Of a stretch of DNA of 64,000 nt, positions 17,646-37,187 are shown in pieces (positions within the stretch are counted from its first letter, which is position 1; each line of letters starts with the position of its first letter). The stretch comes from Paucibacter sediminis (GTDB taxonomy: Bacteria; Pseudomonadota; Gammaproteobacteria; Burkholderiales; Burkholderiaceae_C). Where the stretch lies: NCBI RefSeq assembly GCF_030254645.1, contig NZ_CP116346.1, forward strand, positions 2,419,973 through 2,483,972, given 5' to 3'. Below the pieces are notes generated by a model. It made no database searches and was not told the DNA's origin. It saw nothing but the letters and a program-made list of their open reading frames with translations. The translations under genes and the position numbers were made by a program.

Positions 17646-19243
17646 AGACAAGGCGATTGGACGAGCTGTCCCTGAAGGCCCTGCTCAGTGCCGGCTTCGG
17701 CAGCGTGGCGCTGCTGATTGCCGCCCTGGGCGCCGCCGGCTGGCTGGGCATTGGCGCGCTCAATGCGCGGGTCGATGAGCTGGTGCGGGGCCAGTATCCG
17801 CGCATGGCCCTGGTCGGCGAGGTCGAGCGCGATGTGCGCGAGATGGGCCGCTCGCTGCGCAATCTGCTGCTGTGGAACGACATCCGCGAGATCAAGCAGG
17901 AGACGGCCAGGGTACAGGCCGCGCGCAAGCAGCTGGGGCAGGACCTGGAGGCGGTGGCGGCGCGGATCACGACCGCGGAGGGCCTGGCCATACTGGCCCG
18001 CATGCAGCAGGCGGGCAAGACCTATCTGCTGCTGCAGCGCCGCTTCGAGGACCTGGTGAATGCCGGCTCCAGCGACGATGGTCGCGATCTGCTGAAGGCC
18101 GAGGTGATACCGGCCGAGGCGGTGTTCCAGGCCGGCGTGCAGGAGTTGCTGCGCCACGAGACCGAGGCGATGGCGGCCGCGGCGGAGCAGGCCACCGCCA
18201 GCGCGACGCGGCTGCAGCGGGGTATTGCCGCCGGCGCCCTGTTCGCCCTCTTGCTGGCCCTGCTGCTGGCCTGGTGGATAGTCCGCACGACGACGCGGCC
18301 GCTGCAGCGGGCGGTGCTGCTGGCGCGGGGCGTTGCGGCCGGCGATCTGAGCCTGGCCATAGCCGCGCCGGGCCGCAGCGAGACCGCGCAGCTCTTGCAG
18401 GCGCTGGCCGAGATGCAGGTCGGCCTGTCCGGCGTGGTCGGACAGGTGCGCAGCAATGCTGAGCACCTGGCAGCGGCCAGTCAGGAGATTGCCCAGGGCA
18501 ATCAGGATCTGTCGGGCCGCACCGAGCAGCAGGCCGGTGCGCTGGAGCAAACGGCGGCGGCGATGGAGCAGCTGGGCAGCACGGTGCGCAACAACGCCGA
18601 GCAGGCCGGCCAGGCCAGCCGGCTGGCGCAGGACGCCAGCGCCGTGGCCCTGCGCGGCGGTGCCGTGGTGGGTGAGGTGGTGGCGACGATGAAGGGCATC
18701 ATTGACAGCTCGCGCCGCATCGCCGAGATCACCAGCGTGATCGACGGTATCGCCTTCCAGACCAATATCCTGGCGCTGAATGCCGCCGTCGAGGCCGCAC
18801 GGGCCGGCGACCAGGGCCGCGGCTTCGCCGTCGTCGCCGGCGAGGTGCGCAGCCTGGCGCAGCGCAGCGCCGAGGCGGCCAAGACCATCAGCGGCTTGAT
18901 AGACACCAGCGTCGGCCGTGTCGAGCAGGGCAGCCTGCTGGTCGATCGCGCCGGCGCGACGATGCAGGAGGTGGTTGCGGCCATCGAGCGCGTCAGCGGC
19001 CTGGTGGCCGACATCAGCCGCGCCTGCGCCGAGCAAAGCAGCGGCGTGGCCCAGGTCGGCGAGGCCATCACGCATATGGACCGCGCCACCCAGCAGAACG
19101 CCGCCCTGGTCGAGCAGAGCGCCGCCGCGGCGCTGTCGCTGCAGCAGCAGGCAGCTCAGCTGCTGCAGGCGGTGGCGGTGTTCAAGCTCGCCCAGACCTC
19201 TGTTTCCCCTTCTTTCCCATCCACATCCAAGGAATCTCGATGA
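17642..19243 (+). CDS. Methyl-accepting chemotaxis protein (4HB_MCP-HAMP-MCP signalling domain)
   Basis: N-terminal TM helix plus periplasmic four-helix bundle, second TM helix, HAMP, and the conserved MCP signalling domain (...[34 protein letters not shown]...). The ATG overlaps the iolB stop. The upstream GTG at 17624 listed by the track is less likely. Confidence 0.85.
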
Positions 19244-20238
19244 AAAACGTCGCCCTCTTCGGCGCAGGCCGCATCGGCCGCATCCATGCCGCCAATCTCG
19301 CGGCCCTGCCGGGCATACGGCTGAAGACCGTCAGTGACCCGATGGCAGATTCGGCCCGTGAGGTTGCCGCCCTGCACGGTGCCGACGTGGCCCCCGATAT
19401 CGACGCGGTGTTTGCCGATGCAGCCATAGACGCGGTGGTGATCGCTTCGCCGACGACCACGCACAGCGACCTCATACTGCGCGCCGCCGCCGCGCGCAAG
19501 CACGTGTTCTGCGAGAAACCGGTGGACCTGTCGGTGGCGCGCGCCCAGGCCTGCGCGGATGCGATCGCCACCGCCAATGTCGCCTGCATGATTGGTTTCC
19601 AGCGCCGCTTCGACCCCACCTTCAATGAAGCCAAGGCGCGGGCGCAGCGGGGCGAGATCGGCACGCCGGAGATGCTGGTCATCACCAGCCGCGACCCCGG
19701 CGCGCCGCCGGTGGACTACATCAAGCAGTCGGGCGGCATCTTCCGCGACATGCTGATACATGACTTCGACGTGTTCCGCTGGATGCTGTGCGAGGAGGGC
19801 GATGAGGCGGTCTGGCTCAGCGCCACCGGCTCCTGCCTGACCGACCCGGCAATAGCCACCGCTGGCGACGTGGACAGCACCGCCGTTACCCTGCGCACGC
19901 GCAGCGGGCGCCTCTGCCAGATCAACACCAGCCGCCGCGCCGCCTACGGTTACGACCAGCGCTTCGAGCTACTCGGCTCCAAGGGCCTGCTCGCCTGCGG
20001 CAACCACCGGCCCACCGAGGTGCTGCAGATGGACGGCCAGGGCGTGCGCACCGATCTGCCGGAGAACTTCTTTCTGCAGCGCTACCGCGAGGCCTACCGG
20101 CTGGAGTTGGCGCATTTCTTCGGGCAACTGCAGGCGGGCAGGGCGGTTCGAACCACCATCGAGGATGGTGTCGCTGCGCAACGCTTGGCAGACGCCGCTG
20201 CCGAGTCCTTCGCGCAAGGGCAGCCCGTGTTGTTTTAG
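19240..20238 (+). CDS. iolG: Inositol 2-dehydrogenase (Gfo/Idh/MocA family)
   Basis: [17 protein letters not shown] Rossmann N-terminus, Gfo/Idh/MocA layout, ATG overlapping the MCP stop, AAGGAA RBS. Confidence 0.8.
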
Positions 20239-20466
20239 GTTATGGACAGTCGGCCTGCATCGGTAGCTGAGTCACAACCGTGACGCTCGGGCTAGCTTGA
20301 GCACGCGGAATGGCGCCCTGCAAGCTCCTAGCTGGCCCGTTTCAACTTCTCCGTCCGTTTCTGCGGCTTCAGTCTGGCGGGCTGAATTCTTGGTCGGCAA
20401 GAATGCCTGCAGGGATCGAGGCCCGACTACTGGCTGAACTGGGTCCAGTTGCTGAAAGGTGATCCC

Positions 20467-20521
20467 GTTGTTTACGACTTTGGGTTGGCGGGGTAACTGA
20501 TGCCTAACCCCTCCGTCAAAG
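20467..20521. repeat. Direct repeat copy 1 (25-bp perfect core GTTGTTTACGACTTTGGGTTGGCGG plus ~30 bp imperfect)
   Basis: Identical 25-mer recurs at 23517-23541 in the same orientation, with a similar 3' extension (CTGA.TGCCT.CCCC.GT). Confidence 0.8.
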
Positions 20522-20573
20522 AGACGTCTTGCGCCAGGGCGCAAGCCGCCCCTTGCGTCGAACGTTAGACCCC

Positions 20574-20834
20574 ATGAAATCCAACACGCGCAGGACGTTG
20601 CTTCATTGGCTGCTCGTCGCCGGGTTCGCAGGCAGCCTCTTTTGCGCCGCTCGTGGCGCGATGCTGGTGTACTCCCTGAATTCTGTTGGTGGCATTTCGA
20701 TCCTTCAATCGGCGAGCGCGGAGACAATCAGTGCACAAGCTGCCGGGTTTAGTCCAATACACCGGAAACAGATGGTCTGTTTCGCATTGTTCAGAGGCAG
20801 CACAGTGAGCTTGACCTCATGTATTCATCGCTAG
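20574..20834 (+). CDS. Hypothetical small membrane protein
   Basis: 86 aa (MKSNTRRTLLHWLLVAGFAGSLFCAA...). One or two TM segments. Inside the lower-GC islet. Weak support. Confidence 0.3.
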   Translation: MKSNTRRTLLHWLLVAGFAGSLFCAARGAMLVYSLNSVGGISILQSASAETISAQAAGFSPIHRKQMVCFALFRGSTVSLTSCIHR

Positions 20835-21071
20835 AAACAGCAAGCGAACTTAACTGGGAGCTAGCGATTTTTGGAACTGCCGGATTCACGTTGCTGTCGT
20901 GCCTGTTTTCCGTCTGCCTTGCCATTCAAGCGCGCGGAGTGGGGAGTCAGAACCATGTGGTCTAACCGGTCGGTCAAGGGGACACACAACGGCGGTCCTG
21001 GCCTGTCCGCCTATGCTAGCGCCGTGCCGCCGTCGCGTGCCACTTACCTCCAACGTTAAAGCGCCAGCCAC

Positions 21072-21614
21072 ATGCGGGAACTGCACCGGTCTTCACAAGT
21101 TGTCCTAGCCTTTGCGATCGGTGTCGGCCTGCTTTCTGCACTTCGCTATCTGGTTGGCGCGGGCGCGCTCTTAGTTGCTGCCTTGCTTGCGATCCTCGGT
21201 GTCCTTGCACTTACCTGGTCAGGTTGGCGCGCTGTGAGCTTTCGGACAGCCGAAACGACGAACTACTTCGTTGTCGCTGCAACTGTTTGGCTTGCTTGGG
21301 TCTTCGCACCGTTGGATACCGCTGGTGTCTATGTGAAGTTTTGGCTGGAGCGCCCGTCATACGACTCAGCGGCGCGGGAAGCTGCACGAGGCGTTCAGCC
21401 CCCCTGCGCAACCACAAAGGCCTGCATGTTCGAGGCTGGATCCGATGCGAACTTGGCTTTCCCTTGGGAGGGAATCATTGATAACTGGATTGGGGTTGTT
21501 CATGACCCCTCCGGTCGGATTGAAGATGTGGACTCGCACAAGGGAGCTTTTGGCGGAGATTTGGTAGGCTGCCAACACCTTAGCGGACCCTACTACCTGT
21601 GCAGCTTTACATGA
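21072..21614 (+). CDS. Hypothetical membrane protein (3 TM N-terminus + Cys-containing C-terminal domain)
   Basis: 180 aa. Codon usage is lower-GC than the flanks. No recognisable family. Confidence 0.45.
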   Translation: MRELHRSSQVVLAFAIGVGLLSALRYLVGAGALLVAALLAILGVLALTWSGWRAVSFRTAETTNYFVVAATVWLAWVFAPLDTAGVYVKFWLERPSYDSAAREAARGVQPPCATTKACMFEAGSDANLAFPWEGIIDNWIGVVHDPSGRIEDVDSHKGAFGGDLVGCQHLSGPYYLCSFT

Positions 21615-21694
21615 GCCGCTTTAACCATTTGCTCGATCCGACTCGCGTCGGCCAGCCGCCGCTCGCGGCTCAGCGTCACCGTTGAACAGCGGCA

Positions 21695-22048
21695 ATGCGG
21701 CCAGGCACAGCTTTCATTGCTGTAGGAATTCTGGGTGCACTCTACGGATGCGACGCGGGATGTGGGAACGATGTCACGTCAACCTTTGAATCGCCTGGAG
21801 GTGGTCACATCGCGGTGATTTTCAGTCGCAACTGCGGGGCAACTACTGGCTTCAATACGCAGCTATCTGTCTTGGCGCGAGCCGACGCGTCTTCCAGCGA
21901 AGCTGGAAACACTCTTATTGCCGATGGCAAGCTGCCGCTAAAGGTTCGCTGGGCTTCGGAGTCCGAGCTTGTGGTCACAGGCTATCAGGGCGCGCGGCAT
22001 TTTAAGCAGGAGAAGCTCGCCAACGGAGTGACGGTCACATATGAATGA
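21695..22048 (+). CDS. Hypothetical lipoprotein
   Basis: 117 aa with signal peptide and lipobox LYGC. Confidence 0.45.
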   Translation: MRPGTAFIAVGILGALYGCDAGCGNDVTSTFESPGGGHIAVIFSRNCGATTGFNTQLSVLARADASSSEAGNTLIADGKLPLKVRWASESELVVTGYQGARHFKQEKLANGVTVTYE

Positions 22049-22124
22049 AACGCTTCTGTTCAACCCTGCGCCCAAGCGGACCTGCGCCAGCTATGCTGGC
22101 TGGTCCGCTTAGCTAGATCGTTGA

Positions 22125-22536
22125 GTGTCCGCATTGGGGCTGCGAATTCGACAGTGTGACTGACTGCAATCGCTGCCAAGGCGCCCTTCAATTGGGGCTC
22201 AGATGTGTATTGCCAACGGGTTGAATCTGCCTTGATGCCGCTTGAATCTGGGAGAAGCCTGGCTCCGACTGATTTTATTTGGAGCGACTCGCTGAAGGTC
22301 GCAGATTTAAGGAGTTCCGACGGACTTTCCAGTTTCGCACCCGGTAGAAAAATCAATGACATACGCGCGTCAATCCCGACGGACCTTATTTGTTGGAGTC
22401 ACATTCTTTCTGTCTATTTAAAGCCGTAAATGGTCTGTCCACTAGTGGCGCTTAAGCAGCCTTCGCCATGGTGAGGTCAGCTTTGCAGCGATTGCAGTCA
22501 GTCACATTGTCGAATGCGCAGCCCCAATGCGGATAC
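22125..22536. repeat. 412-bp element bounded by 52-bp inverted repeats (MITE-like / long-stem RNA candidate)
   Basis: 22125-22176 (GTGTCCGCATTGGGGCTGCGAATTCGACAGTGTGACTGACTGCAATCGCTGC) is the reverse complement of 22485-22536 with 3 mismatches. The ~308-bp AT-richer core has no convincing ORF. Confidence 0.75.
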
Positions 22537-22545
22537 TCAACGTTC

Positions 22546-22565
22546 GAGCTGAGCTGAGCTGAGCT
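22546..22565. repeat. (GAGCT)x4 tandem microsatellite
   Basis: gagctgagctgagctgagct directly follows the right inverted repeat. Confidence 0.7.
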
Positions 22566-22607
22566 GCGCGCGGAGGATTGCCGACGCGATTCGGCTCGAG
22601 CGAGGGG

Positions 22608-23255
22608 TTAGGCAGCGTTCGGCGAGCTTGCAACATGACCAGGAGCGGTCTCCAAACCTTGTGTCATCCGACCTGCGTCTCGGATCAGGCGCTCCGCCGC
22701 AAGCTCCAGGAAGAAGAAGCCGAATCTAGGGTTCTGGTAGTACATCTGCCGGACCTCGTCGTAGGTGAGGAGCAGGAGCTGGCCGTCTTGGTCGCATACA
22801 ACGGTCTGCGTTCGCTTGTGCCCTTTCGTGATCAGCCCAAGCTCGCCGATAACTTCACCTTGCTTCAACACGATATCAGCCTCTACGGCGCGAAACCTTC
22901 CGCTGAGCACGAACATAAACTCCGCGGCCTCGTCGCCCTGCTTGAAGAGAGTCTCCCCGGCGTGAACGGCCTTGCGGCGCGAGAACGGTCTGAGCCAGTC
23001 CATGGACAGGTGCCCCGTGGAGGCCTCCTCAATCTGACGGGTCAGTTGCAGCAGCTGCCGCAGGCGCCAAAGGTTCAAGGGCAGCAGAGTCAAGTGCAGA
23101 AGCAGCACTGGGTAGACGCTGCCCATCGCACCATAGGTGACAAACGCTAGATTGGAGACAATTCCAGCCATGCGTAGGTGCAACATTGTCTTCATTGAGA
23201 AGGTCGTCAGCGTCAGCAGTGCGCCCAGATAGCCAAACATCTCCACCCATTGCAT
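22608..23255 (-). CDS. Membrane-anchored cyclic-nucleotide-binding (CAP_ED/cNMP) domain protein
   Basis: Start ATG 23255 with GGAGGGG RBS. Three N-terminal TM helices, then a cNMP-binding fold (FKQGDEAAEFMFVLSGRFRAV...GEVIGELGLITKGHKRTQTVVC). GC ~58% versus ~68% in the flanks. Confidence 0.7.
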   Translation of the reverse strand: MQWVEMFGYLGALLTLTTFSMKTMLHLRMAGIVSNLAFVTYGAMGSVYPVLLLHLTLLPLNLWRLRQLLQLTRQIEEASTGHLSMDWLRPFSRRKAVHAGETLFKQGDEAAEFMFVLSGRFRAVEADIVLKQGEVIGELGLITKGHKRTQTVVCDQDGQLLLLTYDEVRQMYYQNPRFGFFFLELAAERLIRDAGRMTQGLETAPGHVASSPNAA

Positions 23256-23516
23256 GTCCGCCCCTCCATGAGCACTGAAGGCCCTTGGGGGCCTGGAGGA
23301 ATACATTGTGCTCTGTGACAGACGGCCCCCAAGTTCTGTGAGAGCTAACGTTGACGCTGAGCAGCGCGCGGCGCCTGCCGGCGCTTCAACATTCGGGCGC
23401 CCATCCGAGCATGCAGCTTGCCACCCCAGCAAGGAAGGCCATGCAAATGCTGATAGCTTAAGCGGCGAGATGCGTCTATCCGTTGATCTGGAGTCGGCCG
23501 CAAAAGTGGCCGATTT

Positions 23517-23567
23517 GTTGTTTACGACTTTGGGTTGGCGGTGAGGCTGACTGCCTCCCCGTAAAGT
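23517..23567. repeat. Direct repeat copy 2
   Basis: Same 25-bp core as 20467-20491 plus a degenerate extension. Confidence 0.8.
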
Positions 23568-23759
23568 GCGTAAACACGGGCTGAGCATTTATGCAGGCTG
23601 GCGACCGAAATCCGATTTGCGGTGACGTCCAGGTCCCCGCCGTCGGCGTTCAACGCCTGAATTGGTGATTGCTCCAGTGGTTCCCGGTTGAATAGCTGTT
23701 CAGTTTGGTCAGCCGGTACCACCGAATGTGGGGCCACCGGTTGTCAACGTGACATCGTG

Positions 23760-26393
23760 TCAGGAGTCCGACGTACACGGCGCTTCTGCAGAGCCGAGAC
23801 AGAAGCGGTCCCGTCCTCCTGCCTTGGCGGCGTACAACAAGTCGTCCGCCCGTTTGCTGAGGTCGCGCGGCGTCAGCCCAGGCTCGCCGCGATAAAGCAC
23901 CACGCCGATGCTGGTGCTGACGTGGACGGACCGGTTCTCCAGCACAAACGGCGTGCGCATCGCCTCAACGATATTGCCTGCAATGGTGACGGCATCGGCC
24001 GGCGCGGACAGTTGCTCGACGATGACGGCGAACTCGTCGCCGCCGGGGCGGGCCACGATGTCGGCGCCGCGCAGGCTGCGCGACAGCCGGCCGGCGAAGC
24101 CGCGCAGCAGCAGGTCGCCGGCCAGGTGCCCCAGGCTGTCGTTCACCTGCTTGAAGCCGTCCAGGTCCAGCAGCAGCAGGGCCATCGTGCCGCCCACGCT
24201 TTGGCAGCGCTGCACGGCCTCATACGCGCGCTGCTCGAAGCCGGCACGGTTCAGGAGGCCGGTGAGGCTGTCGGACTGGCTCAGCTCGATCAGTCGGCGC
24301 TCCTCCTGCTTCTGCGCGGTGGTGTCCAGAATCATCGCCACAAAGCCCAGCACCTCGCGGCCGTCGTCGGCGAACTGGGGCAGGTAGCTGGCGCGGTAGC
24401 AGCGGTAGCCTTCGCGCGTGGTGATCTCGCTGTCGAAACTCACGGTCTCGCCGGCCAGCGCGCGTCGGATGTGCGGTGCGGCCTCGCCGTACGCGCCCGC
24501 GCCAATCACCTCGCGGACGGTGAGGCCCAGCAGCTCGTGGCGCGGCCGGCCAAAGGCGCGCTCGTAGGCCAGGTTGATGAAGCGATAGCGCTCGTCCGCG
24601 TCGACATAGGACACGCGCATGGGCAGTTGATCGGTGATGCTGCGCAGGCGCTGCTCGCTCTGACGCAACGCCTGTTCGGCACGGCGGCGCGGCGTGATAT
24701 CGCTGGCCAGGGCGTAGAAGCCGTCCACCGCACCGGCGGCGTCGCGCCTGGGTACCAAGGCGACGTGGATCCAGCGCTCCTCGGCCCGTCCCTGGATGTG
24801 GCGCTCGTAGCTCGCGGCTTCGCCGCGCAGTGCGGCTTCCATGGCCGGCCGCACCTCGGCCCAGGCCGCCTCGCCCAGCACCGAGGCCACGGTCTGCCCG
24901 AGCACGGCCTCCGGCGCGATGCCCAGCCAGTCCTGGTAGGTGCGGTTGGCAAAGCGGTAGCGGAATTCGCGGTCGTGATCGGCGATCAGCGCGGGCGCGC
25001 TGTCGGTGATGGCGCGCAGGCGCTCCTCGCTGGCCGCCAACCTGGCCTGGGCCTCGCGGCCCTCGGTCACGTCGCGCAGCAGCAGCTGCGACAACTGGCG
25101 GCCGCGCGCATCTCGGTAGCGTGCGGTCTGGACCTCCACCTCGAGGCGCCGGCCATCGCTGCGGCATAGCGTCAGCAGGCGCGGCTGGCCCGCCGGCTGT
25201 TGCAGGCATTCGGCAAGCGATGTGCCATTGCCATTGGGCAGTTGCGTGAGCGCCAAGCCAGGCGTGCCTGGCGGCTCTTTCGGCGCCAGCTCCAGCATCA
25301 GCCGCGCCATCGGGTTGAGCGCGGTCAGCCGGCCTTCCGGATCGACCACCACAATGCCTTCGCTGGCATGCTGGAACTGCGCCTGTTGCTGACGCTGGCT
25401 GGCCAGCAGCTCGGCCGCCAGGCCGCAGATCAGCACGCCGGTGCAGACCTGGGCGGTGACATAGCTCCACAGGGCCAGCAGCCCGGCGTGGGTGTCGTGT
25501 CCGGCAAACGGGCCGATGCCGCTGGCGGTGCCCCAGGCGGCCGTGCCCGACAGCAGCAACACCGCCAGCGAGGCCGCTAGCACGCCGGCACGCAGCGCCA
25601 GCACGGCCATCAGGAACAGCGGCAGGGCCAGCAAGGGAAAGGTCAAGGCCGTCGCGGGCGCCGTCCAGGGCGAGAAGGTCAGCAGCCCGCAGGCCAGCAC
25701 CAGGCCCAGCAAGGCCATGTTGAAGCGGCCGCGCCGGCCGGCAAAGCTGGTGCGCATGCTGGCGCGGGACATGGCGACCAGCGGAATACCGCCCAGCAGG
25801 GCCCCGACCGCATCGCCGGTCCACCAGGTGAGCCAGGCGGGCGCCCATTGGCCGGCCGACAGGAAGCCCGCCAAACGCAGCCAGACGCAGCCATTGCTGG
25901 CGGTGACCAGCATGCCCAGCGCCACGGCCAGCAGGTAATGTCCCAGGTCGGCGCGGCGCGTGAGTGCCGCGTCAAAGCCCAAGCGGCCGAGCAGTTTGGC
26001 GCTTAGCCAAGGGCCCAGCGCATTGCCCGCCGCGATACCGAGCGCCGCCCAGGCGGGCGTGCCGATCTGGTAATTGATCAGAAAGGCGGCCAGCAGCATG
26101 GTCGGCGCCATCGAGGTGCCCCAACGCAGATAAGCAGCCAGTGCGATACCGGTGGGCAGCCAGATCAGCGAGACATGCGATCCGATGTAGGGAATCAGCA
26201 GGCCCAAGCGCGCTGCCAGGTAGTAGGCGAGCGCGGCCGCGCCCATGCGCGCGAACTGGTGCGGGCCTGATGCCTGTGACGGCGCTTCGTATGGGGTGCT
26301 CGAGTACACGGCCAGCCCAGGCAATGGCACTGCGTTGGCACCAAACTGCTCCCATGACATCCTTGGCCTGATGGGTAACCGGCCGGACTCCAT
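23760..26393 (-). CDS. Sensor diguanylate cyclase: MASE1 - PAS - PAS - GGDEF
   Basis: Seven-TM MASE1-like N-terminus, two PAS/PAC regions, C-terminal GGDEF (GGDEFAVIV) and no EAL. The start is ambiguous: TTG 26726, ATG ~26393 (MESGRL) or ATG ~26360 (MSWEQF). Confidence 0.8.
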   Translation of the reverse strand: MESGRLPIRPRMSWEQFGANAVPLPGLAVYSSTPYEAPSQASGPHQFARMGAAALAYYLAARLGLLIPYIGSHVSLIWLPTGIALAAYLRWGTSMAPTMLLAAFLINYQIGTPAWAALGIAAGNALGPWLSAKLLGRLGFDAALTRRADLGHYLLAVALGMLVTASNGCVWLRLAGFLSAGQWAPAWLTWWTGDAVGALLGGIPLVAMSRASMRTSFAGRRGRFNMALLGLVLACGLLTFSPWTAPATALTFPLLALPLFLMAVLALRAGVLAASLAVLLLSGTAAWGTASGIGPFAGHDTHAGLLALWSYVTAQVCTGVLICGLAAELLASQRQQQAQFQHASEGIVVVDPEGRLTALNPMARLMLELAPKEPPGTPGLALTQLPNGNGTSLAECLQQPAGQPRLLTLCRSDGRRLEVEVQTARYRDARGRQLSQLLLRDVTEGREAQARLAASEERLRAITDSAPALIADHDREFRYRFANRTYQDWLGIAPEAVLGQTVASVLGEAAWAEVRPAMEAALRGEAASYERHIQGRAEERWIHVALVPRRDAAGAVDGFYALASDITPRRRAEQALRQSEQRLRSITDQLPMRVSYVDADERYRFINLAYERAFGRPRHELLGLTVREVIGAGAYGEAAPHIRRALAGETVSFDSEITTREGYRCYRASYLPQFADDGREVLGFVAMILDTTAQKQEERRLIELSQSDSLTGLLNRAGFEQRAYEAVQRCQSVGGTMALLLLDLDGFKQVNDSLGHLAGDLLLRGFAGRLSRSLRGADIVARPGGDEFAVIVEQLSAPADAVTIAGNIVEAMRTPFVLENRSVHVSTSIGVVLYRGEPGLTPRDLSKRADDLLYAAKAGGRDRFCLGSAEAPCTSDS

Positions 26394-26589
26394 CTTCGTC
26401 GTCCGTGCTGTCTGTTGCCTGACATTTGGGACGGACCGCGGGCTGAATATGTCGCTACGCTTGCGGATGCCGGACGCACCGGGCTGCGCGATGCTGTGAA
26501 GGCTGCCTGGGCGGTCAAGGGCATCGCTCCGGCCTGAGATGGCGAGGCCCTGTGGCGATTGGCGGTCTACCTTGATTGAGGAGTCGGCG

Positions 26590-27045
26590 ATGAAGTACAA
26601 ACTGCTCTCGTTTCTGTTTGCTGCCTTGCTGCTGTCCAACGCGAGCGCGCAGGTGCAAGGGGTGGTCGCCATGCCCAGCAAATTCTCGGTTGCTGAAACC
26701 ATCGACCGCGCCGAAGCCGCAGTCAAGGCAGCCAGCGGCTTTCAGATCTTTGCAAGAGTCGACTTTCAGGCCGTGGCGGCGACGCAGGGCGGCAAGGTGC
26801 GCCCCGCCCAGCTGTTGATCTTTGGCCGAGGCACGGTGCTCCCAGCCCTGCTGCCGCAGTACCCCGCCACTGCGATCGATCTTCCGCTCAAGATCGTTGC
26901 CTGGGAGGATGAAACGGGCAAGGTCATGCTGGCCTACAACACCGGCGAGTACCTGGCGCAACGGCATGGAGTCATGGGCAAGGACGACGTCCTCAAACGC
27001 ATCACCGACGCCACCGCCTCTTTTGCAAAGCTGGCGATTGAGTAG
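26590..27045 (+). CDS. DUF302-family periplasmic protein
   Basis: GAGGAG RBS, signal peptide MKYKLLSFLFAALLLSNASA, ~150 aa. Confidence 0.55.
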   Translation: MKYKLLSFLFAALLLSNASAQVQGVVAMPSKFSVAETIDRAEAAVKAASGFQIFARVDFQAVAATQGGKVRPAQLLIFGRGTVLPALLPQYPATAIDLPLKIVAWEDETGKVMLAYNTGEYLAQRHGVMGKDDVLKRITDATASFAKLAIE

Positions 27046-27235
27046 TGCCCGAGCCGGCTGCACACGCGCCCTAGCGAAAGCAGCGGACGCGCGCCGGTGA
27101 TCGCAGGATTGACGCTTTCCAACTCCGGTGCGCAGAATCAAAAAGAGAGCCCTCGGGTGAAGACTCTCGTCCGCATCGGTGGCGCGCCGATCCTGCGCTC
27201 TGTCCAACCATACGGCGCGAAGAGAGGTTTATCCT

Positions 27236-27880
27236 ATGTCTCCGACCAGGTTTCTTGGACTCAGGCCGCTCATCGTGGCCGCGATCACCGCGCTGGGTAC
27301 GACGAGTGCGCACGCGCTGATCTTGTGTGTGGATTCGGGCGGCAACCTGTCCGCCGGAACGACGTGCAAGAAGGGTTGGACGCCTCTGGATCCGGTTGCT
27401 ACGGGCCTTCAGGGGCCGATGGGTCCACAGGGTCCGCAAGGTCCGCAGGGGCCACAAGGGTTGACAGGGCCTCAAGGCAACGTCGGGCCCATGGGGCCGC
27501 AAGGTAGTCGGGGCCCCAGTGATGTCTACGCCGTCGACGGGGTATTCGCGCCGGATCTGCTGAACGACGTCATCACCAATGTCGTTTCCATCAACCTTCC
27601 CCCTGGAAGTTACCTCGTTGTCGGGCGCGTGATGGTGGAGAACGACGATGTTCAAAGCAGGGCGACATGGTGCCGCCTCAGCGAGCCAAGCTTCACCCTG
27701 GACAACGCCGGACCGGAATACCAGCGAACGCTGCCGGCGGGGACGATGGACAACATCAGCCTTCAGCACACGCTGGTTTTCTCGTCGGCAAGCACAGTGA
27801 CGATGCAATGCAAGTCCTATAACGCGAGAGTGTTCTTTCCCCGTCTCGCGGCCATTCAGGTGGGGGCCGTTCACAAGTAG
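27236..27880 (+). CDS. Collagen-like triple-helix repeat protein with C-terminal globular domain
   Basis: AGAGG RBS and a signal peptide. 13 consecutive G-X-Y triplets (GLQGPMGPQGPQGPQGPQGLTGPQGNVGPMGPQGSRGPS), then a ~120-aa beta-rich domain (BclA / phage-fibre-like architecture). Confidence 0.6.
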   Translation: MSPTRFLGLRPLIVAAITALGTTSAHALILCVDSGGNLSAGTTCKKGWTPLDPVATGLQGPMGPQGPQGPQGPQGLTGPQGNVGPMGPQGSRGPSDVYAVDGVFAPDLLNDVITNVVSINLPPGSYLVVGRVMVENDDVQSRATWCRLSEPSFTLDNAGPEYQRTLPAGTMDNISLQHTLVFSSASTVTMQCKSYNARVFFPRLAAIQVGAVHK

Positions 27881-28107
27881 GAAACGGCGTGGCGCAGCGG
27901 GAGCGCCTGAGCTCTTCCGCTGACCTGGCCGACCAGGGGCGCACGTTGAAGGACCGATAGCCTCTGGAGGGCAATCAATGCAGTCAGGCTGACGCTGGCG
28001 TCGCGGCAGCGAACGGCAGTTGTGCAGCGATGGCAGCCTGAGCCCGACTAACTCTATGGGCTGCTCTCGGCCAGGCGCGGCCGTTCAACAACGACAGTGC
28101 GCATGCT

Positions 28108-28509
28108 TCAAGCATCGCTCACGGTCTCGTGCTCGGCAGGAATGAAGATCTCGAGCAGTTCGCAATCCTCGGACCATCCGACCACGGTGTGGCGGATGTT
28201 GGGTGGCTGCACCCAGCTCGAGCCCGCATGCAGCCGGCGCCGGCCGACACCCTCAAACTCGGTCTCGAACCACCCTCTCAGGCAGTAGACCATCTGGAAC
28301 TGCACGTCATGGCGATGACGGACGCTCAACTCGGGCCGGTAGGGCTCGATCATGCGGATCACATGCGCTCGCGCGAGGCCGTTCGTCGCCTCAGCGACAC
28401 CCAGATCACGATAGGACGAGTAGCTGCGTAGCCCCCCGGTCTTGAAGGCAGCCTCGTCATGGTGGCTGAGGACGAAGTGGTGCTGCTCGTTGGATGACGG
28501 CGTGTTCAT
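28108..28509 (-). CDS. Cupin-domain protein
   Basis: GGAG RBS. 133 aa with a two-motif cupin pattern (HRHDVQFQMVYCLRGWFETEFEG...HAGSSWVQPPNIRHTV). Confidence 0.55.
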   Translation of the reverse strand: MNTPSSNEQHHFVLSHHDEAAFKTGGLRSYSSYRDLGVAEATNGLARAHVIRMIEPYRPELSVRHRHDVQFQMVYCLRGWFETEFEGVGRRRLHAGSSWVQPPNIRHTVVGWSEDCELLEIFIPAEHETVSDA

Positions 28510-28988
28510 GTGAGCTCCAGTGACTGCCCGAATTCCGATCAGACCTCGCGACAGCGAGCTTGGCAATCCTAAGACCACGCTTGCAGCGCTCATCGGGGCT
28601 GTCTGCAGGCGTGCGCTGGGCCAGCGTTCAAGGGTTGCGGATTTGATCGGGCGCGCGGCGTACATGACGAGCGACGGTATTTGGACTTCCATGTCCACGC
28701 AGCCCAGGCGCTCACAGACCTGGACCAGGCCGAGCTGTCTGTCACTGATGCCAGCGCCAAACTGTTCGGCACGATCCGCCTCGCTGCGCCGATCGTGCTT
28801 AGTCCATAGGCAGATCTAGCGCGGGCCGCCTAATGCTCCCGTTCTTTACGAAGTTACCGTAGGAGAGCGGCGGAGTGCTCCTGGGCTTCAGCGATCTCAA
28901 CCCGGGCGAGGCCGTCATCGTCGATTTCCTGCCACTGCCGCCGGACGCTCGCCACAGCACAGGGCACTTCGAGCGAGGCGTCGAAGGG

Positions 28989-29354
28989 TTACTGGTGGAA
29001 CGTCTTCAGCAATTGCTTCAAGCGTTTTCGTCCGTCGCTATTCGTCTCGCGAAACGTCTTCAGCGCCAGTGCCAGGAACTGCTGTTCTCCTGGTGACAGA
29101 CCCGTTGGCTCGCGCTCTTCGTCCAGCCACCCGGGCTCCTTGCTGCAATGCTGCTCGATCTGTCGAGCCAGCTTGTCGCCGATCGGCCGAGCGCCGCTCT
29201 TGGCCATGGACCAGGTGGCGCTACTCACCTCGATCTTGCTTGCCCAGGCCGACTCAAGTCCCTTGGGTGGGTCGCCGGCGGCGATGCGTTCTTCCGCAAA
29301 AGTCTGGAAGAGCGCAATGGCGTTGAGTCGGCGAAATGTAGAGATGCTGGACAC
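28989..29354 (-). CDS. Hypothetical protein, possible HTH regulator
   Basis: 121 aa. Helix-turn-helix-like segment KIEVSSATWSMAKSGARPIGDKLARQIE. Lower GC. No family assigned. Confidence 0.35.
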   Translation of the reverse strand: MSSISTFRRLNAIALFQTFAEERIAAGDPPKGLESAWASKIEVSSATWSMAKSGARPIGDKLARQIEQHCSKEPGWLDEEREPTGLSPGEQQFLALALKTFRETNSDGRKRLKQLLKTFHQ

Positions 29355-29876
29355 GGCGTGTGTTGTTAAAACACTTCACATGCATTCTAGGGGATCGAAG
29401 GAGTTGACGGGGCCGTGAACACTCTTCACAATTCATCCATTCGTTAATTCACCCCAACCCGCCAGGTCTCATCATGCTTCGCACAGCCTACGTCACCAAC
29501 GCCAAGCGCCCCCTTTCGGGTGAGATGGCTGTGTGCTTCGCTGCGGCTCGCCATGAGATTGCGCTGGCACTGAGCCAGCCGCGCCAAGACCGATACGAAG
29601 GTGAATCAATGCTACCGGGGAAGGCTCCAGCCCGCTGAAGCTTTCGTACTCCAGGGATCCGTCGATCCCATGAAGCCCGGTCTCCTGCAGGAACCGGGCT
29701 TTTTGTTTGGCTCCTGCGAATCGGATTGATGCCATCTCGGGTGTGCCCGTGCACAAGCACCGGCCGGCCCGGTGCGCATGTGTGCCCAAGCACGTTCTGC
29801 AGACGGAGCCGGCATGCAGCGGTCAAGACAAGCCTTGCTTGCCTGGGTCGCGTGCGGACACAGCCGAGATGCCATC

Positions 29877-29953
29877 GCCTCGTTAGCTCAGTGGATCAGA
29901 GCGTCGGCCTACGAAGCCGGAGGCCGGAGGTTCGACTCCTTCACGAGGCACCA
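29877..29953 (+). tRNA. tRNA-Arg (anticodon ACG)
   Basis: Clean cloverleaf: acceptor GCCTCGT/ACGAGGC, D-arm GCTC..GAGC, anticodon loop CTACGAA, T-arm GGAGG-TTCGACT-CCTTC, CCA encoded. Confidence 0.85.
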
Positions 29954-29965
29954 GTTTTCATTTCT

Positions 29966-30040
29966 GTCCCGTTGGACTTCCGGTGAGGTCCTCGGCCCTT
30001 CAAGCCGAAGAGGCGGGTTCGACTCCCGCACGGGATACCA
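29966..30040 (+). tRNA. Aberrant tRNA-like gene (anticodon position reads TTC, C33 instead of U33, selC-like D-loop TCCGGTGAGG)
   Basis: Folds with a 7-bp acceptor (one G.U pair), T-arm GCGGG-TTCGACT-CCCGC and CCA, but the anticodon loop CCTTCAA is non-canonical. Possible pseudo-tRNA. Confidence 0.4.
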
Positions 30041-30142
30041 GATCAAAAGCCTGTCGTCGAGCTCGCGCTTCGACAGGCGCAAACCGGCCGCAACGATTGG
30101 GCGGCGTCGGAACCCGTCACCGACAGCTATAGCGAGCAAGAC

Positions 30143-30218
30143 CCGTGTGTAGCGCAACTGGTAGCGCATCTGCTTTGGGAGCAGGCGGTTGCAGGTTCAA
30201 GTCCTGCCGCACGGACCA
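30143..30218 (+). tRNA. tRNA-Pro (anticodon TGG)
   Basis: Acceptor CCGTGTG/CGCACGG (one G.U), D-arm GCGC-AACTGGTA-GCGC, anticodon loop TTTGGGA, T-arm GCAGG-TTCAAGT-CCTGC, CCA. Confidence 0.85.
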
Positions 30219-30228
30219 GGAGAAACAT

Positions 30229-30304
30229 GTCGCCATAGCTCAGTTGGAAGAGCAGCGGGTTTTGATCCCGCAGGTCGCAGGTTCGAACCCTGCCGCCCCT
30301 GCCA
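30229..30304 (+). pseudogene. Chimeric tRNA-Gln(TTG)-like sequence with non-pairing 5' acceptor strand
   Basis: Anticodon arm GCGGG-TTTTGAT-CCCGC, T-arm and 3' CGCCCCT-G-CCA match betaproteobacterial tRNA-Gln. The 5' strand GTCGCCA cannot pair with CGCCCCT, and the D-arm is of the Thr/Ala type. Confidence 0.45.
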
Positions 30305-30344
30305 GAACACATGAATCGTGCCCAGTCACAGAAAGGAGGACGCC

Positions 30345-30905
30345 ATGCACGACGTATTGCAGCTGGACATCATCGGCCAGCCTCAGGCCTGGATCTCGAT
30401 CAAGCAGGCGGCCGTCCATGTGGCTACGCGCTCGGTCGCCTGGTCGATCGGAGAACTGCCACTGGCTGTGCTGCGTGGTGGAACGAACGTTCGCAGCGGC
30501 CAGCAGTCGATCCTCGAGGTACCGGCCATCCTGGCTCTCAGCGGCAACTCGCGTCTGAATCTGTTCGACATGACGCCAAGCTTCAACAAGGCCAAGGTGA
30601 TCCGGCGCGACCGCCAGACCTGCGCCTACTGCGGCGATGCGCATGATGTGCGCTGCCTCACGGTCGACCACATCCTGCCGGCATCGCGTGGCGGGCCGCT
30701 CAGCTGGATGAACACGGTCGCTGCCTGCCGCGCCTGCAATGCGCGCAAGGCCGACCGCACGCCCGAGGAAGCCGGGATGCCGCTGCTGTTCACGCCCTAC
30801 GTGCCCAGCCGTTTCGAGGACTTCCTGCTCAAGGGCAGGCGGATCCGCGCGGACGTGCACGAGTGGCTGGCCGCGCGGCTACCGAAAGAATCGCGTCTGA
30901 GCTGA
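30345..30905 (+). CDS. HNH endonuclease
   Basis: AAGGAGGA RBS. Motif CAYCG...LTVDHILPASRGG...ACRACNARK (C-x2-C ... H ... H ... N ... C-x2-C). 186 aa. Embedded in the tRNA array. Confidence 0.8.
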   Translation: MHDVLQLDIIGQPQAWISIKQAAVHVATRSVAWSIGELPLAVLRGGTNVRSGQQSILEVPAILALSGNSRLNLFDMTPSFNKAKVIRRDRQTCAYCGDAHDVRCLTVDHILPASRGGPLSWMNTVAACRACNARKADRTPEEAGMPLLFTPYVPSRFEDFLLKGRRIRADVHEWLAARLPKESRLS

Positions 30906-31037
30906 CCCACCCGGTCGGCCCAGACGCCCACAGATCTGCCTTGGAAGGTAGGGCTCACAGCTTGGGGGTTCCACCCCACCGGTGCGTTGTGGCCGGGCTC
31001 GTCCCGTCGCTATGACGCATGCCGCCCTGCTGAAAGG

Positions 31038-31101
31038 GGCCGATACGGTGAAACACGGTTGTCCTGCAAGGGTTCGGGTTCGACTCCCGGGTTCGCCACC
31101 A
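31038..31101 (+). other. tRNA-like 3' fragment (acceptor-like stem GGCCGAT/GTTCGCC + T-arm TCGGG-TTCGACT-CCCGG + ACCA), no D/anticodon arms
   Basis: Ends ...GGGTTCGCCACCA. Only ~27 nt lie between the 5' acceptor-like strand and the T-arm. Its CCA abuts or overlaps the start of the downstream tRNA-Thr-like gene. Confidence 0.4.
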
Positions 31102-31173
31102 CTGGATAGCTCAGTCGGGTAGAGCAACGGATTCGTAATCCGTGTGTCGTGGGTTCGACGCCCACTCCACCAA
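31100..31173 (+). tRNA. tRNA-Thr (anticodon CGT)-like, first three acceptor pairs disrupted, no encoded CCA
   Basis: D-arm GCTC-AGTCGGGTA-GAGC, anticodon loop TTCGTAA, T-arm GTGGG-TTCGACG-CCCAC. The 3' acceptor TCCACCA needs a 5' TGGTGGA, but CACTGGA is found (positions 1-3 mismatched). Likely truncated or pseudo. Confidence 0.45.
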
Positions 31174-31432
31174 TGGCCTGTCACGCCAGTGAAAGAAGCG
31201 GTCGCAAGACCAACCCGCCGAACGTGCCGGCCTGCCCTCGGGTAAACCGGCATCAGCGCGGCCACCCGTGCTTCGGGCACGCGGGGCCTGCGTCCACGGC
31301 CAGTTCGAAGTGTGTCCAGGGAGGGCATGCCGACGACGCGCCGCGGCACCCAGTCCCAGGCATCCGGGGTCCGTGGCCGTGCTGTAACGGCACCCCTATT
31401 CAAACAACACGCTGCAAAACAAGGAGAACCTC

Positions 31433-32569
31433 ATGATGATCAAGCGTGTCACTGTGAAGAAGAACGAGCGCGGCCTGCTGCTGCGCAATGGTGATTTCGA
31501 GCGCGTGCTGCAACCCGGCACGCACTGGCTGTTCGCCGGCCTGGACCAGCTTCAGGTCGAGCTGTTTGCCATTGGAGCGCCGGCCTTCGTGCACCCTCTG
31601 ACCGATTACCTGCTGGCCAAGGAGCCGGCGGTGGTCGAGGCCGAGTTCGTGCGCGTCGAGTTGAACGCCAACCAGGTTGGCCTGCGTAGCGAGAACGGCG
31701 TGCTGGTTGAGCTGCTGCCGCCCGACACGCGGCGCCTGTACTGGAAGGGTCTGGTGGATGTGCGGGTCGAGGTGATCGACCTAGCGAGCTCCATCGAGCT
31801 GTCCCCGGCGCTCACCGCTCGGCTGCTGCAGACCCAGTTACGCCCACGGAGCATCACCGGCCTGGCCGGCGCGCTGCAAGTGGTCGTGCCGGAGCACGGC
31901 GCCGGCCTGCTGTGGGTCGACGGCAAGGTCGAGCGGCTGCTTGGCGCTGGCTCGTTCGCGTTCTGGAAGTTCAACCGCAACGTGAGCGTGGATCTGGTGG
32001 ACCTGCGGCTGCAGGCTGTCGAGGTGACGGGGCAGGAAATCCTGACCCGCGACAAGGTGGCTCTGCGGCTCAACCTCTCGGCCACCTGGCGCTACTCGGA
32101 CGTGCTGAGCGCCTACAAGGCCTTGGCCAAGCCGGCCGAGCATCTGTACCGTGAGCTGCAGTTCGGTCTGCGCGCGGCGGTGGGCACGCGCTCGCTCGAT
32201 GAGCTGCTCGAAAACAAGGGCGTCATTGACGAGGTGGTGACCGCCCAGGTCAAGGCCAAGCTCGCGGCGCTCGGGCTCGAGCTGACCAGCGTCGGCGTGA
32301 AGGACATCGTGCTGCCGGGCGAGATGAAGACCATCCTTGCCCAGGTGGTGGAGGCCGGGAAGTCGGCCGAAGCCAACGTGATCCGCCGCCGCGAGGAAAC
32401 CGCCGCGACCCGTTCGCTGCTGAACACCGCCAAGGTGATGGAGGACAACCCCGTCGCCCTGCGCCTCAAGGAGCTGGAAACCCTGGAGCGCGTGGCGGAG
32501 CGCATCGACAAGATCTCCGTCTTCGGAGGTCTGGACCAGGTGCTCAATGGGCTGGTGAAGCTGCGTTGA
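31433..32569 (+). CDS. SPFH/band-7 (slipin/HflC-like) domain protein
   Basis: AAGGAGA RBS. 378 aa with a recognisable SPFH domain (...ILTRDKVALRLNLSATWRY...LQFGLRAAVGTRSLDELLENK...) and a C-terminal coiled-coil. Confidence 0.75.
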   Translation: MMIKRVTVKKNERGLLLRNGDFERVLQPGTHWLFAGLDQLQVELFAIGAPAFVHPLTDYLLAKEPAVVEAEFVRVELNANQVGLRSENGVLVELLPPDTRRLYWKGLVDVRVEVIDLASSIELSPALTARLLQTQLRPRSITGLAGALQVVVPEHGAGLLWVDGKVERLLGAGSFAFWKFNRNVSVDLVDLRLQAVEVTGQEILTRDKVALRLNLSATWRYSDVLSAYKALAKPAEHLYRELQFGLRAAVGTRSLDELLENKGVIDEVVTAQVKAKLAALGLELTSVGVKDIVLPGEMKTILAQVVEAGKSAEANVIRRREETAATRSLLNTAKVMEDNPVALRLKELETLERVAERIDKISVFGGLDQVLNGLVKLR

Positions 32570-32633
32570 GTGCCGCCCCGGCCTGGCTCAATTTGAATCT
32601 CGCCCGGCTGGGGCTCTACATTGGAACAACATC

Positions 32634-33851
32634 ATGGAAGCTCAACACATTCACGAAGACGTCCCAGGCGGTGTGCCGCTGAAGATGTGGACGCGTGGCG
32701 TGCCCGTCGAGTCCGAGGCCAAGCGCCAGCTCACCAACGCGGCGCGCCTGCCCATCGTCTTCAAGCACATCGCCGCGATGCCTGACGTGCACTTCGGCAT
32801 CGGTGCCACGGTGGGCTCGGTCATCCCGACCATCAAGGCCATCATTCCGGCGGCCGTGGGCGTGGACATCGGCTGCGGCATGATCGCCTGCAAGACCACG
32901 CTGCGCGCCGAAGACCTGCCCGACAACCTCGCCCCGCTGCGCGCAGCCATTGAGCGCGCAGTGCCGCATGGCCGCGTGCCCGGCAACCGTGACCCGGGCG
33001 CCTGGCAAAAGCCGCCGGGCTCGGTGGATACGGCCTGGGCGCAGCTCGAGCCCGAGTTCGCTGAGCTTTGCCGCAACTACCCCAAGCTGGAAAAGACCAA
33101 CCATCACAAGCACCTGGGAACGCTCGGTGGCGGCAACCACTTCATCGAGGTCTGCCTGGACGAAGCTGGCGCGGTCTGGTTCATGCTGCATTCGGGCTCG
33201 CGCGGCGTGGGCAATGCCATCGGCACGATGTTCATCGAACTGGCCAAGCAGGACGCGATGCGCCATCAGGCCAACCTGCCTGACCGCGACCTGGCCTACT
33301 TCGAGGAAGGCAGCCGCTACTTTGGCGACTATGTCCGTGCCGTGAGCTGGGCTCAGAAGTACGCCGCTATGAACCGTGAGGTCATGATGCGCCGCGTCAT
33401 CGAGGCTGCAAAGACGGTCCTGCACAAGAACTTCCAGAGCCACATCGAGGCGGTGAACTGCCACCACAACTATGTGCAGCGCGAGCAGCACTTCGGCGAG
33501 GACGTGTTCGTGACCCGCAAGGGTGCGGTGAGCGCCAAGGCAGGCCAGCTGGGCATCATCCCGGGCAGCATGGGCGCGCGCAGCTACATCGTGCGCGGCA
33601 AGGGCAACCCGGAGTCCTTCGAGTCCTGCTCACATGGCGCGGGCCGCGTCATGAGCCGTGGCGATGCCAAGCGCAGCTTCACGCTAGCCGACCACCGCGC
33701 GGCCACGGAAGGCGTCGAGTGCCGCAAGGACAAGGACGTGCTGGATGAAACGCCCGCGGCTTACAAGGACATCGATGCCGTCATGGCCGCGCAGGCGAAC
33801 CTGGTCGACGTGGTGCATACGTTGAAGCAGGTGGTTTGTGTGAAGGGTTGA
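32634..33851 (+). CDS. rtcB: RNA-splicing ligase RtcB (3'-phosphate/5'-OH RNA ligase)
   Basis: 405 aa with hallmark motifs GGGNHFIEV, HSGSRGVGN, and C-terminal SHGAGRVMSR containing the guanylylated His. Confidence 0.9.
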   Translation: MEAQHIHEDVPGGVPLKMWTRGVPVESEAKRQLTNAARLPIVFKHIAAMPDVHFGIGATVGSVIPTIKAIIPAAVGVDIGCGMIACKTTLRAEDLPDNLAPLRAAIERAVPHGRVPGNRDPGAWQKPPGSVDTAWAQLEPEFAELCRNYPKLEKTNHHKHLGTLGGGNHFIEVCLDEAGAVWFMLHSGSRGVGNAIGTMFIELAKQDAMRHQANLPDRDLAYFEEGSRYFGDYVRAVSWAQKYAAMNREVMMRRVIEAAKTVLHKNFQSHIEAVNCHHNYVQREQHFGEDVFVTRKGAVSAKAGQLGIIPGSMGARSYIVRGKGNPESFESCSHGAGRVMSRGDAKRSFTLADHRAATEGVECRKDKDVLDETPAAYKDIDAVMAAQANLVDVVHTLKQVVCVKG

Positions 33852-33982
33852 GCCGCAGGGCTGCTCGGATGTTGTCTCCCGGCTTGACCATGGCGCCGCG
33901 CGAGGTCTCGAACACTTTCGGGAACGCAACCCCCGGATTCCGCATCCAATGGGCAACACTCGCAAACTCCGGTGAACGCACC

Positions 33983-35465: not shown

Positions 35466-35473
35466 GCCGCCGG

Positions 35474-35917: not shown

Positions 35918-35922
35918 GCGAC

Positions 35923-37179: not shown

Positions 37180-37187
37180 GCCCGGCC

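Follow-up and report, generated by a model that had tools for sequence, protein, structure and literature searches.

The locus analysed here lies in Paucibacter sediminis, in a stretch of 64,000 nucleotides (nt) (NCBI RefSeq assembly GCF_030254645.1, contig NZ_CP116346.1, positions 2,419,973 to 2,483,972 of the forward strand) that is referred to below as the window and whose numbering is used for all its coordinates. It consists of a low-GC islet carrying small open reading frames (ORFs), integron-type attC sites and two direct repeats, and is bordered by two convergent genes: iolG (19240-20238, + strand), which encodes an inositol 2-dehydrogenase (Pfam GFO_IDH_MocA, scored in identical metagenome copies) and, as the last gene of a conserved iol operon, forms the left boundary of the variable region; and, as the right neighbour, a MASE1-PAS-GGDEF diguanylate cyclase gene (23760-26726, - strand; Pfam). 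Measured over intervals of 400 nt, the GC content is 0.52-0.60 from ~20200 to ~23800, compared with 0.66-0.77 upstream and ~0.70 downstream. A first-pass annotation of this DNA had described a GC drop between the two repeat copies; the drop itself was recovered, but the low GC is not confined to the repeat-bracketed part and fills the entire iolG-GGDEF intergenic space (20239-23759).

The repeat is a 25-mer, GTTGTTTACGACTTTGGGTTGGCGG, with exact copies at 20467-20491 and 23517-23541, both on the + strand; no further match was found in the 64-kb window when up to 3 mismatches were allowed, and 0 copies are expected window-wide from 100 shuffles. Ungapped similarity reaches 34 nt at 88%, and with small gaps the alignment extends over ~55-60 nt on the 3' side, and at ~60-70% identity over ~60-80 nt on the 5' side, so that the positions, the direct orientation and the longer 3' similarity all agree with what had been noted before. 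The two copies are diverged paralogues, identical at 25/25 positions in the core and at ~60-70% over ~150 nt in the flanks; in neutral relics with such flanks, the chance of a 25/25 core is about 0.65^25, or 2e-5. An intact core inside flanks of 60-70% identity therefore points to a conserved binding site or to short-tract conversion rather than to a fresh target duplication, and the pattern of conserved core and diverged flank indicates, at the level of sequence, a putative protein-binding site and not a duplication made by insertion.

Each small ORF of the islet is followed by an imperfect palindrome that reads as the GCCTAAC...GTTAGAC type. Such sites were called with two covariance models: R1, built from attC sites of the family, and R2, built only from nine attC sites of a sister strain (L001; comparison sequences carry numbers of this form) that have no counterpart in the window. 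R1 called five attC sites in the 64 kb, all in the islet, and R2 the same five with E from 1e-13 to 2e-3, the next best match having an E of 0.45. Four of them lie on the + strand within 1.6 kb (20502-22126) and one on the - strand: (i) attC0 (20502-20570, +; R2 19.4 bits, E 2e-3), an atypical first site of the form GCCTAAC...GTTAGAC, located 264 nt from iolG, with its G|TT crossover between 20564 and 20565, (ii) attC1 (20960-21061, +; R2 E 7e-10), which has a long loop, (iii) attC2 (21619-21687, +; R2 E 2e-10), (iv) attC3 (22058-22126, +; R1 E 1e-8 and R2 E 2e-7, both independent of model training), and (v) attC4 (22535-22613, -; R1 E 1e-14, R2 E 1e-13), the best independent match in the window. 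The loop of attC4 holds a short (GCTGA)n microsatellite at 22546-22570, with fewer units in L053 and L060. A partial site at 23343-23384 (- strand), comprising the L'-R' half only (...GCTCAGCGTCAAC|GTTAGCT), precedes the inverted cassette described below; it matches the 3' half of the family attC at 87% and was called by neither R1 nor R2. The attC sites of L001 measure 57-111 nt and take the form ..TAACC..TCGAGCCGAC..GGCTCAGC..AACGTTRRRY, and each L001 cassette begins with the reverse complement of its own end. When eleven sites were aligned, an outer AAC/GTT stem (R''/R'), an inner L''/L' stem with one unpaired base and a variable loop became apparent, with compensatory changes in 6 of the 13 pairs of the RNAalifold consensus; as judged from this predicted fold, the architecture is that of textbook attC sites. 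An Rfam scan of the islet at a permissive threshold gave no match, and a scan of the whole window gave only tRNAs, at 29.9-31.2 kb.

The sites delimit three forward cassettes and one inverted cassette. Cassette 1 (20565-21055, +), the ends of which are reverse-complementary (GTTAGACC...GGTCTAAC), contains an ORF (20574-20834) of 86 aa from its ATG, or 101 aa from an upstream TTG, in place of the 130-aa ORF that some sister strains have (L001, 11335-11727); in both the window and L005, small indels near 20745-20760 have shifted the reading frame, and the ORF is probably a pseudogene. Cassette 2 (21056-21681, +) encodes a 180-aa protein with multiple transmembrane segments (21072-21614), and cassette 3 (21682-22120, +; ends GTTGAACAG...CTGTTCAAC) a 117-aa protein with a lipoprotein-type N-terminus (21695-22048), neither having a Pfam match. 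The inverted cassette (22541-23348, -) encodes a 215-aa protein (22608-23255) with an N-terminal membrane segment and a cNMP_binding domain (PF00027, E 5e-14); 9 metagenome contigs encode an identical protein in the same surroundings. The gene content given by the first-pass annotation (a multi-transmembrane protein, a lipoprotein-like ORF and a cNMP-binding protein) was thus correct, by sequence reading and PF00027. Its observation that no integrase or transposase is present also stood, as Pfam found no PF00589 or transposase domain among the ~40 ORFs tested across the window; no sigma-70-like promoter match was seen in 20100-23900.

Because no intI is present, the islet does not qualify as a complete integron, and a cluster of attC sites without an integrase in the window falls under the published definition of a CALIN, a cluster of attC sites lacking integron-integrase (Cury et al. 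2016, PMC4889954). We hold it to be very probable that the islet is such a CALIN, that is, a small, strain-variable integron cassette array without a nearby integrase. IntI excises and inserts cassettes singly via folded attC sites, cutting at the G|TT of the R' box. By extension from integron biology, each cassette of the islet would consist of a promoterless ORF and its attC, and an IntI encoded elsewhere would move the cassettes one at a time.

The strain comparison bears directly on this point. At one and the same junction, between attC0 and a non-coding segment X (22121-22187, +), the number of cassettes differs among sister strains of this Paucibacter-like species and is 0, 3 or at least 14. 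In every strain the last attC is succeeded by X; L023 and L053 have the same X, and L060 has a variant of it after attC0. L001, whose IolG protein is identical, matches the window over the first ~2.2 kb after iolG and then continues into a long run of small ORFs without Pfam matches; in the alignment, the two are identical at 94/94 positions through attC2 (to CACCGTT) and unrelated straight after the GTT, beyond which L001 contains at least 12 further cassettes. In L060 and L003, both from another sample, the attC0 G|TT is fused directly to X, representing the zero-cassette state. Divergence begins exactly at the attC G|TT crossover, and the same two repeat modules span ~1.9 kb, 3.1 kb or >8 kb depending on the strain. 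With 0, 3 or at least 14 cassettes between the same modules, the content is not a unit and a single 3.1-kb insertion is refuted. We infer integrase-mediated gain and loss at the attC sites, with the integrase acting in trans; single cassettes are the real units of mobility.

In several strains an insertion sequence (IS)-like element interrupts attC, separating the R'' box from the L'' stem, and two different attC sites are affected (L002 11732-11958; L006 3231-3314; L012; L022; L001 17597-17721; L023 6818-6935). It has inverted ends (TTACAGGGACTTCCC... / ...GGGAAGTCCCTTCGTA) at which the assemblies break, and gave no match in Rfam; it recalls attC-targeting IS1111-type elements or group IIC introns, its sequence being too short to classify.

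The motif GTTTACGACTTT, which occurs 3 times in the window against 0.06 expected, is the building block of a ~58-nt palindromic unit, and the 25-mer makes up one of its arms. Alignment and motif scans place both copies of the 25-mer within modules that point right and that we term spaced-site ends (SSE). SSE-a (20405-20563, +), a diverged copy of the end module, holds repeat copy 1; its homology to complete modules stops at 20563, the predicted tip (site start + 93 nt), beside the G|TT of attC0, which occupies the position of the terminal site and tip. SSE-b (23454-23577, +) holds repeat copy 2, lacks the terminal site seen in other strains and has 85-87% identical counterparts in L011, L014 and L023. 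A 59-nt imperfect palindrome (23519-23576), in which a site is followed by a GC hairpin and an inverted site, has copy 2 as its left arm and a DNA fold of -16.3 kcal/mol (z -6.2). In L053, L054 and L058, two abutted terminal sites replace copy 2 between identical flanks, from which it follows that the local sequence is exchangeable.

Between these modules, X forms the left arm (22104-22187) and its inverted copy X' (22474-22541, -) the right arm (22474-22557) of an 84-nt inverted repeat, whose arms are 87% complementary; each arm combines the terminal 17 nt of an attC with X, the two attC sites facing each other. The 286-nt interval that separates the arms contains two abutting transposon-end modules, and homologous recombination could invert this segment. 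One of the two is a packed-site end (PSE) relic (22407-22473, -), with terminal site TTTCTGTCTATTTAAAGCCGTAAAT, a tip that points left and the motif at 22420-22430 (-); it is homologous to complete ends in L014, L053 and L060 and shows an internal deletion relative to sister strains. The other (22300-22403, +) we tentatively describe as a variant two-site module, SSE', with two direct sites CCGACGGACYTT (22317 and 22376; spacing 59 nt) that point right; L014 has the same pair at a spacing of 60 nt. Reading 22196-22400 as a degenerate standard end module gave an unconvincing alignment and was rejected, the variant two-site module describing this segment better. Relative to L023, the window has ~1.24 kb extra between X and SSE-b. 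The segment 22407-23577 has the layout expected of a ~1.2-kb non-autonomous Tn7-type mini-element with cassette cargo (E2), its anatomy being directly legible and its mobility presumed. As proposed, E2 would comprise the packed-site end, X', the inverted attC, the cNMP-binding gene and the spaced-site end, and would make up the distal third of the islet.

The assignment of these modules to Tn7-type transposons came from complete ends in sister strains. Complete ends with TGT tips and arrays of the motif, packed or spaced, were present in L011, L014, L023, L029, L053 and L060. In L011, L014 and L023, a second copy of the first half of the repeat, contained within GTGTTTACGACTTTAATTGYCAGGAACA, follows the repeat at 68 nt start to start, and the three sequences diverge exactly after ...CAGGAACA, 68 nt past the repeat. 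In both L014 and L060, an inverted packed array of the same motif (TGTTCCTGTCTATTAATGTCGAAAAC TGTCTATTAAAGTCGTAAAT ...) begins 5 nt past the tip, the spacers between the abutted tips being TTATC and TCATT, respectively. The Tn7 end used as reference agrees at 100% with public records; as it lies immediately upstream of tnsA, it is the right end. Compared with it in the same register, the terminal 26 nt show the TGT tip, the 8-bp segment and then 14/18 matches, with the core TAAAGTCnTAAAC at 12/13. In L053-L055, five genes begin 108 nt past the tip of the packed end that adjoins the cNMP cassette, namely tnsA (PF08722), a gene for a 747-aa TnsB homologue (match to PDB 7PIK, E 5.5e-16), a TniB/AAA_22 protein gene (tnsC-like), tniQ, and a gene combining tniQ and TnsD. 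The complete Tn7-like module spans 10926-19339 in L053 and 4294-12707 in L054.

Modules with two sites, 68-nt spacing and a non-conserved spacer are also found on plasmids: Polaromonas JS666 plasmid 2 has one, and a Diaphorobacter plasmid has two in direct orientation at a distance of 18 kb; Polaromonas plasmid 1 carries a three-site packed end. When a further 100 kb from two plasmids was searched for the opposite ends and for tns genes, only a second solitary spaced-site module was returned; a two-site motif scan of viral contigs gave only unrelated low-GC tandem repeats, and a full-text literature search for the motif nothing relevant. The region left of the module in Polaromonas plasmid 2, with integrase fragments and toxin-antitoxin genes, was considered as an integron and rejected, since no attC was called there by covariance model.

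On these comparisons of sequence, the repeat is rather probably a transposase-binding motif of Tn7-type ends. The 25-bp repeat would then be the inner binding motif of two paralogous, same-pointing spaced-site end modules, and, to judge from the behaviour of this family, Tn7-type elements would insert repeatedly and in one orientation at the hotspot, leaving end relics behind. The window contains no tns genes; elements lacking both these and the tips would be relics or non-autonomous members. Taken together, we think there is a good probability that the locus is a CALIN in a hypervariable Paucibacter-like hotspot, interleaved with Tn7-type ends.

A number of observations weigh against one or the other part of this picture. 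On the transposon side, (i) the end tips are absent from both repeat modules of the window, (ii) for the 5-nt spacers of L014 and L060 no matching duplicate was found at the other end, and no clean 5-bp target duplication was seen, (iii) the tns set of the sister strains lies outside the end bearing the GTTTACGACTTT-type sites and seems to have its own diverged tnsA-proximal end sites (TGAACTTGCAATAAATGCG, CAGTTAAATGCG), and (iv) no single history of inversion and insertion could be derived for the X/X' inverted repeat and the inverted cassette. What the tns genes beyond the packed end do tell is that the hotspot is populated by Tn7-type elements; they do not thereby identify the cognate transposase. 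On the integron side, (v) the attC calls rest on models made from sister-strain sites rather than on the attC model of IntegronFinder, (vi) attC0 scores weakly in the independent model R2, and (vii) no intI was found in the window, the action of an integrase being deduced from strain polymorphism only. For both sides, (viii) the comparison sequences are mostly metagenome contigs, some of them short, and L060, at only 1.6 kb, could be chimeric.

The two components meet at attC0, the left half of which is homologous to the Tn7-type end module, with the crossover falling at the would-be transposon tip; moreover, spaced and packed ends both carry the arrangement attC - X on their inner side. It is conceivable, if improbable, that in this lineage a cassette-recombination site was built into, or derived from, a transposon end. 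If so, there would be Tn7-type (mini-)elements whose terminal repeats double as platforms for cassette acquisition, and the coupling of integron recombination to transposition would be closer than it is in Tn7 and its class 2 integron.

The same junction lends itself to another explanation, in which the repeat module belongs to the integron platform itself, as an attI-like site with accessory integrase-binding repeats. The attI1 site of class 1 integrons has direct-repeat IntI-binding sites, and here the crossover for cassette addition comes 94 nt downstream of repeat copy 1 in every case, module a loses its homology to the end module exactly at that G|TT, and attC0 is atypical. However, modules exist without a nearby attC, as no covariance-model match was found in L011/L044 or in the plasmids; the modules end in TGT tips, form inverted pairs and match the TnsB sites of Tn7; and module b is found at the opposite end of the array and is directed outwards. 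We regard the attI-like alternative as unlikely and retain the Tn7-type reading of the modules.

A very unlikely alternative is that the ends belong to a tyrosine-recombinase element of the GInt/SE/ILE type, with three recombinases in a row. Elements of this type have been documented (PMC5385486, PMC4542609), and their circular joint consists of inverted motifs around a ~6-bp spacer (PMC10214605), which the abutted ends of L014 resemble; furthermore, the Diaphorobacter plasmid with two modules has a trio of integrase, 555-aa and 604-aa recombinase genes plus a small gene in umuC. Against this stand the umuC-proximal border of the Diaphorobacter element, which is devoid of the motif, the closing umuC 3' fragment, which lies upstream of both modules, the several subterminal repeats and TGT tips, which are typical of DDE (TnsB/MuA-type) ends, and the real tnsABCD genes at the hotspot. 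As its borders do not fit, such an element was rejected as the owner of the ends. The Diaphorobacter element itself (L042 22185-27220; NZ_CP049911, 75413-80448) is of GInt/ILE type, inserted after codon 13 of umuC, with genes for an integrase, a 555-aa protein, a 604-aa recombinase and a small 'TetR', an RND efflux system aboard, and the umuC 3' fragment ~9 kb downstream.

The first-pass annotation had taken the islet as the product of site-specific insertion. Horizontal acquisition, with a recombinase acting in trans or lost, is maintained in our analysis, while a single element bracketed by attL/attR-type repeats is not. The latter, a ~3.1-kb non-autonomous integrative element that entered by one site-specific insertion and left ~55-bp direct repeats as attL and attR, accords with the exact 25-mers at the edges of a compositionally distinct block and with the lack of a recombinase gene inside. 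Its content, however, varies cassette-wise among strains with breakpoints at the attC G|TT, the flanks of the repeat copies are homologous (60-70%) and not unrelated, the same module bounds unrelated cargo, or no cassettes, in other strains and in Comamonadaceae plasmids, and in a sister strain repeat copy 2 is replaced by another sequence within flanks that are identical.

Neither did an empty site, which had been suggested as a check of this explanation, come to light: the state iolG - one repeat - GGDEF was not found in the same-species strains, in Paucibacter soli or in L050. In P. soli, the GGDEF gene, whose product has 89% aa identity (nucleotide identity 87-91%), is not adjacent to iolG. 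In the same-species strain L044 (same contig as L011), other genes lie on both sides of the GGDEF gene and homology to the window is limited to 23800-26424; the gene is a resident of the genus, with strain-specific flanks. In L050, a relative with a syntenic iol operon, homology breaks off at 20229, as iolG ends, and sets in again at rtcB (window 32667), the locus having no attC and no motif. Other strains have a repeat-2-type module joined to window position 37198 through unrelated cargo, and the whole of 20239-37198 is a strain-variable hotspot. All told, a single attL/attR element has hardly any likelihood left.

The least plausible proposal, with next to no probability, is that the repeat is a dispersed intergenic palindrome resembling repetitive extragenic palindromes (REP) or miniature inverted-repeat transposable elements (MITE) and unlinked to the islet: copy 2 is indeed a strong 59-nt palindrome, but the motif has only three copies in 64 kb, and a 20-mer of the repeat, searched for in 241 million metagenome records and 185,579 genomes, gave true matches only in same-species contigs mapping to two junction types, nine with the iolG-side junction and three (L011, L014, L023) with the GGDEF-side module, so that the dispersed family whose existence was to be checked did not materialize in public metagenomes. 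The remaining hits of this 20-mer (window 23519-23538) were codons for PFTTLGWP in valS-like genes of Patescibacteria and Acidobacteria (L007-L009, L013, L015-L021, L024), the frame in the window reading ...LLFTTLGWR*; we judged this resemblance to be a coincidence that arises from scanning very large databases with a string resembling a conserved motif.

Both components of the CALIN with interleaved Tn7-type ends are already known kinds of mobile DNA, and current concepts are unchanged by the finding. Like other CALINs and the sedentary chromosomal integron arrays of Beta- and Gammaproteobacteria, the islet has at least 2 attC sites <4 kb apart on one strand with no intI near them, its promoterless ORFs are small and of unknown function, its attC sites are homogeneous and specific to the species, and its cassettes are present or absent at the strain level; it differs in having one cassette and its attC inverted, in its atypical first site, the left part of which is homologous to a transposon-end module, and in being interleaved with relics of Tn7-type ends. 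Integrons, whole or partial, are the cargo of about 10% of Tn7-like elements, and multiple ends result from insertions next to one another (Benler et al. 2021, PMC8649781). The islet shares with Tn7 and its class 2 integron, and with integron-carrying Tn7-like elements, a cassette array beside a Tn7-family end, and, as in Tn7, the cassette of E2 runs from the spaced-site end towards the packed-site end. In contrast, the window has no intI2-like gene, resistance cassettes or tns genes, the main array runs towards the spaced-site end and not away from it, and the ends form a distinct sequence family (AAAGTCGTAAAC). As with tandem Tn7-like insertions at an attachment hotspot, there are several end modules in the same orientation, the inverted tips abut across ~5 nt, and in sister strains the place is taken by a complete tnsABC-tniQ-tnsD element, whereas most ends here are relics or belong to non-autonomous mini-elements, and neither an attachment gene nor target duplications were identified. 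With attL/attR integrative islands, the islet has in common direct repeats edging a low-GC block beside a conserved gene; it departs from them in its diverged paralogous repeats with a conserved core, its modular variable content and its lack of an integrase and of an empty site.

Direct repeats around a low-GC block can therefore mislead, those described here being read as conserved transposase-binding motifs. The locus offers a clean natural case of cassette gain and loss at one junction, in co-occurring environmental strains and with no integrase in cis, which bears on how CALINs arise and whether they stay active. The ends would represent a previously undescribed end-sequence family of Tn7-type elements on Burkholderiales chromosomes and plasmids, and could help to delimit such elements in annotation.

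Beyond the GGDEF gene, the strain-variable region includes a 233-aa protein with collagen-like G-P-Q triplet repeats (27179-27880; PF01391) and a tRNA cluster (29877-33851) comprising Arg-ACG, Glu-TTC, Pro-TGG, Thr-CGT and one or two partial tRNA-like matches, which adjoins an HNH endonuclease (30318-30905), an SPFH/Band7 protein and the RNA ligase RtcB. The segment 28618-33870 is entirely missing from L053, and a relative has RtcR-Ro60(vWA)-RtcB at that place; the tRNA/RtcB cluster could be a mobile module for tRNA supply or RNA repair.

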